64,000 nucleotides of DNA from Escherichia coli O157:H7 (GTDB lineage: Bacteria > Pseudomonadota > Gammaproteobacteria > Enterobacterales > Enterobacteriaceae), in NCBI RefSeq assembly GCF_013167455.1, contig NZ_CP038328.1. One strand, 5' to 3'. Positions 18,001 to 21,000 of the stretch are shown here, one piece after another. A program made the position numbers. Each line of letters starts with the position of its first letter. The stretch's first letter is position 1.

Positions 18001-21000
18001 CAATTATTGCATTTCTCACCAGCGGTGGTAGTGCATATATCGGATAAGGATTTTCTGGTGCAAGTAAGCACATAAAAGCCTCTCTTTTCATTAATGGGTT
18101 AGTAAAATAGCAGCAAATCCCGCTACAATAGCGAAAATAGCTGCTATTCAGACCTGATGCTCTGAGAAATACAGAGCATTTGTAGATCTGATGTTTAATA
18201 AACCGATAAGGTTAATTCAGTGAAGACTGTATTATTCACCACGAAATATCATTCATATTTCTCATTCTTAATACCTCCGGAAATTATTTCACTAATACCT
18301 TTCCCCCGGTCTTTTCCCTTTCTCCAGAACCATAGTGTAAATATTAACGGCCCCACGTAAATTTCCGGGACTGCATACGTCAACCTGATTCTGACAGGCA
18401 ATTGACATCGCTGTTAATACTGACATTGCAACCAGAGTCAGAGGTACTTGTTTATTGTATTGAGCTTTAATTATTGCCTTCCCTATCATTGATGGTCATG
18501 CATATACTGAATACGACATATCCGGTTTGATGTAAGGCATAAATGCTTCCTTTTTCGTAATACGTTTCGGTTATAGCAGCAATTACCGCTACAATAGCGA
18601 CAATAGCTGCTCTTTCAACAATGAATGCTGGAAATTCTGTTTATCAATTAAACTTCTGGCTAAATTGTTCTTATGCTTCTTTTTCCTCCTGAGGTGATCA
18701 CGTGATGACAAAAACTTATCTGCTCATGGTCATATCTGAAGAAAGCGTATGTCTCACTTCGTCATTAACACCTTTGACTGCTGATCTGGCAGGTACAGTA
18801 TGTAAAGTAAGCCATTCGTCAATAGCTGATGAACGCCAGCCCACAGAACCACTACCAAGACGTACCGGCCTGGGGAAGGTTGCATCGTAGTATTTCGATA
18901 ACGGATTCATTTTTTCGTAAATTGTCGAACGAGATATACCTAACAATTGGCTCAGTTCAGGCATCCGTAAGATGCGTGAAGGAGTCCTGCAGTGTCCGGA
19001 TTGATCTGGCATTTTATCCCCCATAGTGTGGTGAACTGTCGTTACAGTTTGTATTCCCCGGGTAAATTTGTCTGCGTAAAAAAATGGGTTGAGAAAAAAG
19101 ACAATAAATAATTAAAAATCAATATGATAGAAAACGACAGCATTAGTGTTATTTTACTTTTCCCTTATCGCTGTCGATTCTCATTATCATTCATGGCAAA
19201 AAAACAGCAAAAGAGGCCCTGGTAATGACTCCTGTCAGTAGTACATGTGTTTTCGATAAATGAACCAATGGCTTTTCGTGAATTTCCAGGGAGCGTAAAA
19301 AGCAAATCGTTTTCCGGGCAGGTCGTTTGATGTGAGTACGAAGTGTCAGATTGTTGCGCTCAATGCGCCGGGTAAATATCTTGCCGACAAGATGCTTATC
19401 CTGTGGCATTTCTCTGGTATAACTGCTCCGGTTGTCTCTGGTTATCATGCCTGCGGAGAATGGCTTCAGGAATTCCGGCAACTCACGGCATGTTTCATCA
19501 GTGCGAGGACCAAAAGTGTAAGCCAGCACACCGTCAGCTTTGGTCTTATACGCGTACCAGTGCCACTGCTGACGAGCTTTGTTTTCGACAAAACTCCATT
19601 GTTCATCAAGTTCACAGATAAGTGCCACATCGACACTGGCGGCTGGAGATATGGTTACTTTACGTGGTGAGCGTTTTTTAAAGTGAGAATGACGGTGTTG
19701 ATATCCACCTTCAGCGTTCTGGAGCTATCGCGAACCCCGGCTCCGTTATGAACCATTTCAACAATTTGCTCTTTAATGCCTGGTTTTCGGGTTTCGTAGA
19801 TGTAATTCAGTTGAAATACACGTTTGCAGGATTAGCACTGGAAACGCTCATGATCTGAGGTGCTGTGATCATAACGGTACACTTTATAGGAATTACAGCG
19901 GGGAGAATATACTGTAACTGTTGCCATATGGTCTCCAGATACCAATAGAATACAACATTAATCTATCGTCAGAAGGCATCACCGGGGCCTTCTGACATAA
20001 TCTGTTAATACGTGTACTATTACCCTGTTCAGAAAATATTGATTCAAAAATGAAAACCAGTTAACAGAAAAGCAAAATGATATAATGTTAAAATTTTATA
20101 TAGTGCAATAAAAGGAGAATGTTATGTATAATTTTATCACTATAATGTATGATGTCTTTTCATGTTTTGGTGTTCTGGCTAAAAACCAGAATAGCCGTGA
20201 CATCCGAAATATTAAAAATTTTTCCTCACATCAACATTCACTGGGCGACATGTTTGATGAATTAATAAACATTATTGATAAAGAACAAGTATTGAGTAAA
20301 GAACAACGAAAAGTTATATTTAGGAGATATGAAGATCTCTATGTTAAGCTAATGCACTATTCTGTTTTTACAGACAAAACACATCAAATAATAAAACAAA
20401 AATATTTTAATGACATTGTACCAATGATTCTCGCACTCGACATCAGGAACACATATCGCCCGGATAATGAGATGGCATTTTACTATCATATTCATTCTTT
20501 TCTCACTCAGATACCGGATAATGAGGATGATATATATCATGCTGCAAGGACATATCTGCGAAATTACGTTAAGTTATGTTTATCCGGATACACGCCAGCG
20601 AATGCGCATTTCAAAGATATCTTTGATGGCGTATATGAATTCATTCGTAATATTCGCAAAAACAGTACACCAGGAAAAACAAAACTTATCGCAACTATCA
20701 ACACATGCAAAGAAACCTGTAAACATCTGCTTTATTTAAGTAATGAAGACAAGGAAAAAATAATTTCTGACTTAGATAAAGTTCAGGTTGCATGTTATTA
20801 TCTCACTATATTACTGGCTTTCGAAAGACGAACTTCATTAACAAGCACCCTGGCAACTTTATATAAAATGCTGATAAGCGAAAGAGAAGTTTCAGAATAT
20901 GAATGCCAGTTATTATATTTAACCAACCCAATAGATGTAATGAATATACTGAACAAATACATATATTACTTTCCTAATGAGAACTCACCATTTTATACAC

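Follow-up and report, generated by a model that had tools for sequence, protein, structure and literature searches.

The canonical insertion sequence IS1A of Escherichia coli K-12 (L009) measures 768 bp, has the tips GGTGATG...CATTACC and encodes a zinc-ribbon/helix-turn-helix (HTH) protein, InsA, and a DDE domain, InsB', which are linked by an A6C motif, with the stop codon of the latter located in the right terminal inverted repeat (IRR). IS1N of Shigella dysenteriae (P0011/L010; NCBI name 'IS1-like element IS1N family transposase'), which is multicopy and active in Shigella, is 766 bp long and carries an A6C motif (TTAAAAAAC). Two further intact elements, one of Enterobacter mori (P0001/L008) and one of E. 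coli (P0004/L011), share the same insA/insB' layout, have C-R-S-C as the second cysteine pair of the zinc finger and end in ...IGSFIEKYMFY*. ISEc30 (P0064), an IS1-family element of E. coli, belongs to the same IS1N-like clade. In ISfinder practice, isoforms of one element are roughly at least 95% (amino acids)/90% (nucleotides) identical.

The present analysis concerned a fossil IS1-family element in a 64,000-nucleotide stretch of DNA from E. coli O157:H7 (contig NZ_CP038328.1), referred to below as the window. Its overall architecture resembles that of IS1A, and its A6C motif is the same as that of IS1N. A sequence-only reading of the window had described it as a strongly diverged IS1 copy at 19191-19983, with a nonsense codon in insA and an insB that had lost its stop codon.

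Boundaries and family assignment

Alignment to intact IS1N-like elements and to IS1A placed the fossil on the minus strand at 19221-19983 (763 bp). In its own orientation, it reads 5' to 3' from GGTGATGCCTTCTGAC (19983) to GGAGTCATTACC (19221), with ...CTGACAGGAGTCATTACC as its minus-strand end and GGTGATG...CATTACC as its tips. Position 19191, from which the sequence-only reading had counted the element, turned out to be the stop codon of a read-through open reading frame (ORF); the true boundary, at 19221, lies 30 nt inward. The following features define the outline of the element:

19221..19983, minus strand: whole IS1-family fossil, by boundary alignment; single copy in the window by self-BLAST
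19961..19983, minus strand: left terminal inverted repeat (IRL), GGTGATGCCTTCTGACGATAGAT; matches the E. mori IRL at 18/23 positions and that of IS1A at 13/23
19221..19243, minus strand: IRR, reverse complement GGTAATGACTCCTGTCAGTAGTA; 15/23 positions identical to the IRL of the fossil, 17/23 to the IRR of E. mori and 14/23 to that of IS1A
19673..19682, minus strand: retained IS1-type -1 frameshift motif TTTAAAAAAC (A6C), by alignment to relatives

With its 763 bp, the fossil has the size expected of an IS1 element (~770 bp; 761-768 bp in four intact relatives). It is bounded by imperfect repeats of ~23 bp that start with GGT(A/G)ATG (IRL GGTGATGCC..., IRR GGTAATGAC...), of which 15/23 positions are identical between left and right, as compared to 17-20/23 in intact elements. 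Sequences corresponding to insA and insB' occur in phases 0 and -1 and are joined by the A6C motif, and the -1 frame that follows TTTAAAAAAC (RSPRKVT...ELDEQW) is colinear with InsAB' of the relatives. When the internal stop codon was masked, the conceptual InsAB' product matched the Pfam profiles DDE_Tnp_IS1 (E=7.6e-53), HTH_Tnp_IS1 (2.2e-20) and Zn_ribbon_InsA (4.7e-12), and scored 208.9 bits against the NCBIfam equivalog transpos_IS1, for which the cut-off is 100. In the DDE domain of InsB', the invariant residues are aligned with D (ELDEQW), D (TRDN) and E (RIERNN) of the fossil. No other IS family competed with the IS1 profiles, and the earlier identification of the element as an IS1-family member, based on its termini, was thereby upheld.

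A DNA alignment of the fossil with IS1A of K-12 and three intact relatives yielded the following identities:

Fossil and E. mori element: 69.8% (nucleotides), 72.8% (amino acids)
Fossil and E. coli P0004 element: 69.5% (nucleotides), 71.2% (amino acids)
Fossil and IS1N: 69.0% (nucleotides), 69.5% (amino acids)
Fossil and IS1A: 49.9% (nucleotides), 36.3% (amino acids)

A BLASTP search among 5.8 billion proteins likewise identified IS1-family transposases of E. mori and E. coli as the nearest intact homologues (71-72%), with Shigella IS1N at 66% and the more distant ISEc30 at 60% amino-acid identity. The fossil is therefore an isoform neither of canonical IS1 (IS1A/IS1R) nor of IS1N, whose identity to it is far under isoform level; in addition, the fossil occurs as a single copy at one fixed locus. 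The alignments place it in the IS1N-like clade, and it is not a decayed canonical IS1. The strong divergence from canonical IS1 noticed earlier is thus real, and is mostly due to IS1A being the wrong reference. The same applies to CSHC, which is specific to the second zinc-finger pair of IS1A, whereas the clade of the fossil has C-R-x-C at this position.

Synonymous sites were saturated between the fossil and all intact relatives (dS >1.8 or undefined), which indicates that the fossil represents a separate lineage and is not a decayed copy of the E. mori or E. coli P0004 element. No intact progenitor closer than 72% was present among the 5.8 billion proteins. Similarly, no closer intact copy was found in a plasmid collection, in which the best DNA match besides the fossil itself was 73% identical; matches of at least 99% in this collection, in records of 0.2-4.8 Mb, are probably chromosomal pieces. 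The active progenitor lineage is either unsampled or extinct.

Lesions in insA and insB

The E. mori and E. coli P0004 elements are intact, whereas the fossil carries a nonsense codon, a cysteine-to-serine replacement and two frameshifts. The reading frames and their lesions are listed below; L004 denotes a contig with a divergent allele of the fossil, which is described in the next section.

19655..19927, minus strand: interrupted insA remnant (zinc ribbon and HTH), by Pfam match and conceptual translation; ATG at 19927, terminal TAA at 19657-19655
19904..19906, minus strand: TCT (Ser) in place of the TGT of the first zinc-finger Cys; TGT in all intact relatives and in the L004 allele
19832..19834, minus strand: in-frame TAA nonsense codon within the second CxxC of InsA, by sequence and allele alignment
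19191..19628, minus strand: insB-derived ORF of 145 aa, with a GTG start and TGA at 19191-19193, by ORF finder and Pfam DDE_Tnp_IS1
19273..19276, minus strand: A-run shorter by 1 nt (GAAAAG, as compared to GAAAAAG in intact relatives), the first 3' frameshift, in all fossil alleles examined
19250..19253, minus strand: second 1-nt deletion (GAAAACAC, as compared to GAAAAACAC or GAAAAGTAC), which leaves the frame at -2
19235..19237, minus strand: TGA, the ancestral stop of insB, located in the IRR; retained in the window allele, where it is out of frame

The region encoding the zinc ribbon and HTH of InsA is clearly homologous to that of other IS1 elements, but the zinc-finger motif itself has been destroyed (SxxC ... 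C*SC). Its second cysteine pair reads TGC TAA TCC TGC, as compared to C-R-S/D-C in intact relatives and C-S-H-C in IS1A. The TAA is located exactly where the sequence-only reading had placed it. The corresponding codon of the E. mori element and of the L004 allele is CGC (Arg), so that all three bases have changed. Amino-acid decay extends beyond the zinc finger: 19 of the 92 residues that are invariant across four intact IS1 elements, from IS1A to the IS1N clade, are replaced in the fossil, and a change from SDDW to RDNR removed the invariant Trp beside the second catalytic Asp in the window allele.

Near the 3' end, the two 1-nt deletions in A-runs put the original TGA out of frame, as a result of which the insB ORF crosses the IRR and stops 30 nt outside the fossil. 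Hence, insB does read through the terminal repeat, as had been noticed, but its stop codon was shifted out of frame and not lost. When translated in the ancestral frame, the C-terminus of the fossil (...H-(E)K-AIGSFIE-(K)HMYY*) matches that of its relatives (...HEKVIGSFIEKYMFY*), so that the ending of the E. mori and E. coli P0004 elements can still be recovered. The 145-aa read-through ORF, which is called as a protein (cluster P0072) on at least 1000 contigs, is very probably an accident of decay. In view of the TAA, the cysteine-to-serine replacement and the C-terminal frameshifts of InsB, this allele can yield neither InsA nor InsAB'. It lacks the intact insA and insAB' fusion frame of a functional, autonomous IS1.

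Locus, distribution and allele classes

The order of features at the locus is: a tyrosine integrase gene (int), a hypothetical gene of 605 codons on the opposite strand, the fossil, a gene for an AlpA-family HTH protein (alpA) and a DUF3987/YfjI gene. The two neighbors of the fossil are:

18716..19024, minus strand: alpA (AlpA-family HTH; Pfam Phage_AlpA 5.4e-19; PGAP), downstream, in the same orientation as the fossil
20124..21941, plus strand: 605-aa orphan gene next to int, upstream, divergently transcribed

The 605-aa gene and alpA have each kept 140-196 bp of native upstream sequence, with the fossil ending 196 bp upstream of alpA. The O157 locus is part of the urease-bearing OI-43/48 or SpLE1-type island, with a backbone containing a P4-type integrase. 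No tRNA attachment site was detected next to int in the window or in contigs L001-L004.

The distribution of the fossil was analyzed by megablast with a query of 800 bp that included ~30 bp of flank on each side. Together with its flanks, the fossil was present in 1033 of 5426 complete E. coli genomes, with a median of one copy. A total of 1087 places were found in 1036 records, of which 1029 matched at least 80% of the flank-bearing query; nearly all places (1085/1087) were chromosomal. Identity was at least 99% in 802 records and 95-99% in 233. None of the sampled copies occurred at another locus. A few genomes contained two copies, both with full-length matches that included the flanks, which suggests duplication of the entire island segment. 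In ECE218, the fossil was cut by an IS3. Two exact-pattern scans of 100,044 GTDB species representatives, with the left junction and with a 27-mer specific to the fossil, returned nothing, although exact matching would miss diverged copies.

In each of the PGAP records examined (O157:H7 TR01, CFT073, FCI5, strain 1303 and Esc21), the element was labeled 'IS1 family transposase; frameshifted; internal stop'. A literature search on IS1N, IS1nuxi, OI-43 and SpLE1 retrieved no paper that treats this fossil. The fossil is ordinary, and is already known as an annotated pseudogene.

A query consisting of the two flanks joined (388 nt, blastn) did not reveal an empty site in the 5426 E. coli genomes; it matched the 1033 genomes already known to carry the fossil, none of which had contiguous flanks. 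A search for distant homologues of the 605-aa gene, as a route to IS-free backbones, recovered only relatives with at least 91% identity. Directly outside the fossil, two short sequences are candidates for a decayed target-site duplication:

19984..19991, minus strand: left copy, AAGGCCCC, which matches the right copy at 6/8 positions
19213..19220, minus strand: right copy, AGGGCCTC

A 6/8 match between AAGGCCCC and AGGGCCTC has a chance of ~0.004 per length tried (binomial estimate), while a 9-bp comparison gave 3/9. A decayed 8-bp IS1 duplication could account for this match, which is not proof of one. The possibility that the flanks represent a terminator hairpin that was split by the IS was also considered and was rejected, since a GGCC-centred, quasi-palindromic target duplication is the simpler reading. 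What suggests an insertion event is the structure of the fossil together with this weak 6/8 target duplication.

Comparison of alleles separated three classes. The TAA codon is common to the window, O157 TR01 and Esc21 (99-100% class) and to CFT073, FCI5 and 1303 (96.5-97% class). In the CFT073 class, the slippery motif is broken to TATAAAA. FCI5 also carries TATAAAA, without the GT insertion and the extra 1-nt deletion of CFT073 and 1303. A third, older class was reached via an InsB-like ORF with 80% identity (P0109), on contigs L004-L007 from four samples, in which the fossil occupies the same position in the backbone; in L004, the island that bears it is located beside clpA. The L004 allele is 89.4% identical to the window fossil at the nucleotide level and shares the first A-run deletion with the other alleles. 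It has kept TGT and CGC, and thus has neither the cysteine-to-serine replacement nor the TAA. Instead, it has lesions of its own: a 13-bp deletion in insA, loss of one base from the GGT tip of its IRL and a D-to-E replacement at the second catalytic Asp. Because these lesions differ from those in the window, they indicate that a single orthologous insertion has decayed independently in the two alleles. In all alleles, insB is open over 130-154 codons, and the ancestral TGA is in frame again in CFT073 and 1303, by a third 1-nt deletion, and in L004, by a different extra 1-nt deletion. Taken as a whole, the lesions form an ordered series, as would be expected of one old insertion that was inherited vertically with a diversifying island.

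Origin, alternative readings and significance

The fossil is very probably a dead insertion of the IS1N clade between the 605-aa gene and alpA that has been inherited passively with its island and that is immobile and neutral. According to this reading, an IS1N-like element would once have inserted in the divergent promoter region of ~350 bp between the two genes. By analogy with other members of the family, InsA, with its zinc ribbon and HTH, would have bound the terminal repeats, while ribosomes shifting to the -1 frame at A6C would have fused InsA to InsB', thereby generating the DDE transposase InsAB'. The copy would then have lost its function and have been carried along with the island ever since. 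The conserved locus, the lesions and the neutral decay described below all agree with the earlier suggestion of a fossil element that was inserted long ago between alpA and the int-proximal gene.

Exaptation was considered as an alternative, with the InsB-derived ORF having been domesticated or with the fossil serving alpA in cis, as a promoter, a leader or an insulator. It would explain why the fossil is never missing where its flanks occur, with no empty site among 5426 genomes, why insB has remained an open frame in each of the three allele classes across ~10% divergence, and why the original stop codon was regained twice independently; the position of the fossil, 196 bp upstream of alpA and in the same orientation, would also fit. 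However, in Nei-Gojobori analyses of homologous codons, dN/dS between fossil alleles was 0.72 (window and L004), 0.90 (CFT073 and L004) and 0.53 (window and CFT073, with only 20 differences), and reached 0.7-1.0 in the insB segment, as compared to 0.05-0.11 over both genes and 0.03-0.09 in insB between intact IS1N-like elements. Moreover, L004 has a replacement at the second catalytic Asp, and the window allele has one at the neighboring invariant Trp. Total divergence between the window and L004 was 10.7% for the fossil, which ranks with the most diverged parts of the backbone, as compared to 4.2% for int, 6.0% for the 605-aa gene and 2.0% for alpA. As the value for the fossil falls inside the range of dS of these flanking genes (0.08-0.19) and well above their total divergence, it is indicative of a neutrally evolving sequence. 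Regulatory signals pointed in the same direction: the region contained no more promoter-like sites than shuffled sequences (5, as compared to 4.6) and its promoter/terminator scan did not exceed shuffles, the best alpA-proximal promoter-like site (19152->19124) lies outside the fossil, and an Rfam search (E up to 0.1) detected no RNA family in it. The open insB frame and the regained TGA were attributed to chance and homopolymer slippage, because of the A-run context, the occurrence of variants in such runs in database ORFs P0096 and P0111 and the dN/dS near 1, although they could hint at weak selection and are the one observation that might sustain exaptation. Exaptation is therefore considered very unlikely.

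The possibility that the fossil is non-autonomous yet mobile, with its ends mobilized in trans by an IS1N-like transposase encoded elsewhere in the cell, is in keeping with the recognizable terminal repeats, with the retention of the GGT...ACC tips and with the occurrence in E. coli and Shigella of IS1N-like elements whose transposases are 66-72% identical. This scenario was judged very unlikely: no copy sampled from the 1087 places was at a different locus, the IRL and IRR agree at only 15/23 positions and each deviates at 5-6/23 positions from the nearest intact element, and the L004 allele lacks one base of the terminal GGT. Finally, the TAA and the frameshifts might be sequencing or assembly errors in an intact element, since homopolymer A-runs, in which errors of this kind typically arise, contain two of the lesions (1-nt changes) and are also where a few ORF variants in the database (P0096, P0111) differ. 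Against this stand the identical sequence in hundreds of independent complete genomes obtained on different platforms and the decay of invariant amino acids, which is independent of indels. In addition, none of the three bases of the ancestral CGC is retained in the TAA, which is common to alleles that are 3% apart and occurs in >1000 assemblies, including the 96.5-97% class; this excludes the sequencing error at 19832-19834 that would have undermined the earlier claim. An artefactual origin is thus extremely improbable.

A dead, passively inherited IS1N-clade insertion is an inert relic and, as such, has little biological weight. The 145-aa read-through ORF (P0072), which is often called a 'putative transposase', is better annotated as part of a pseudogene. 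For the IS1 family, the fossil records an IS1N-like lineage that has no intact form in the databases searched. For E. coli, the order of its lesions (the shared 1-nt deletion; the TAA and cysteine-to-serine replacement; the break in A6; the GT insertion and further deletion; and, separately, the 13-bp deletion in L004) can be used to trace lineages of the backbone formed by int, the 605-aa gene, alpA and yfjI in islands of the O157 OI-43/48 type and the CFT073 type.

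Sequence changes within the fossil element and at its left terminus

In the remnant of insA in the IS1-family fossil, the nonsense codon at window 19832-19834 read TAA, as compared to CGC in the ancestral sequence. All three codon positions had thus been replaced, despite an overall difference between alleles of only about 10%, which points to either a multi-step mutational path (for example CGA to TGA to TAA) or a multinucleotide mutation.

At the 3' end of insB, an extra 1-nt deletion was gained independently in two lineages, one comprising E. coli strains CFT073 and 1303 and the other the older fossil allele of locus L004. 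In both, it is located between the first 3' frameshift, a shared 1-nt deletion in an A-run, and the ancestral TGA stop codon (window 19235-19280 and the equivalent positions in L002 and L004), so that termination returned to the original TGA. Some insB-derived ORF variants in the databases (P0096 and P0111; 154 aa) showed indel differences in this same interval or farther upstream in insB.

A further feature lies at the left terminal inverted repeat (IRL) of the fossil:

19968-19996, mismatch-free inverted repeat spanning the IRL boundary, 10-bp arms GTCAGAAGGC / GCCTTCTGAC, 9-nt loop

One arm corresponds to IRL positions 8-17, while the other is located in the flanking DNA. The IRL of related elements reads GCCTTCAATC, and only GCCTTC of the arm is native. 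Arm pairing was absent from the L004 allele. This structure may represent a putative quasi-palindrome 'correction' that occurred via template switching.

In E. coli ECE218 (L003 4064-5494), the fossil was interrupted by an IS3 element. The remainder of the fossil consisted only of the first 266 bp, adjacent to the gene for a 605-aa protein, and the alpA side was missing.

Genes flanking the fossil

20124-21941, + strand, 605-aa gene adjoining int, A+T-rich as judged by eye
18292-18489, - strand, 65-aa ORF between alpA and yfjI
16688-18091, 467-aa YfjI/DUF3987 protein, just downstream of the 65-aa ORF

Searches with the 605-aa protein yielded no Pfam or PADLOC match at E-values up to 0.1, and its only relatives in a database of 5.8 billion proteins were at least 91% identical. 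The gene is an orphan, restricted to the present island backbone. A dN/dS of 0.19 between the window and L004 alleles indicated that it is under selection.

The 65-aa ORF was similar to the N-terminal region of YfjI/DUF3987 (467 aa) and looks like a duplicated gene fragment. At the equivalent position in CFT073, PGAP annotated a 198-bp 'DUF3987 domain-containing protein'.

Island end beside int

23331-23565, 235-bp int-adjacent segment between int and ycdU (regions compared: L003 65-660, L004 727-1305)

The same 235 bp were present beside int in the islands of ECE218 (100% identity), CFT073 (98%) and L004 (85%). A sub-threshold Rfam match to MicC (window 23449-23553, + strand; E = 0.008, 37.6 bits where the gathering score is 90) overlapped the repeat unit beside int and probably reflects a chance or terminator-driven resemblance. 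No tRNA was detected by ARAGORN in the window or in loci L001-L004. Two further copies of the outer approximately 75 bp of the segment were found immediately beyond the island in L003 and L004, and at the site of these repeats in L003 PGAP annotated tandem 'RtT sRNA' units. Based on this repetition outside the island and on the L003 annotation, the attachment site of the island looks like an RtT-type repeat.
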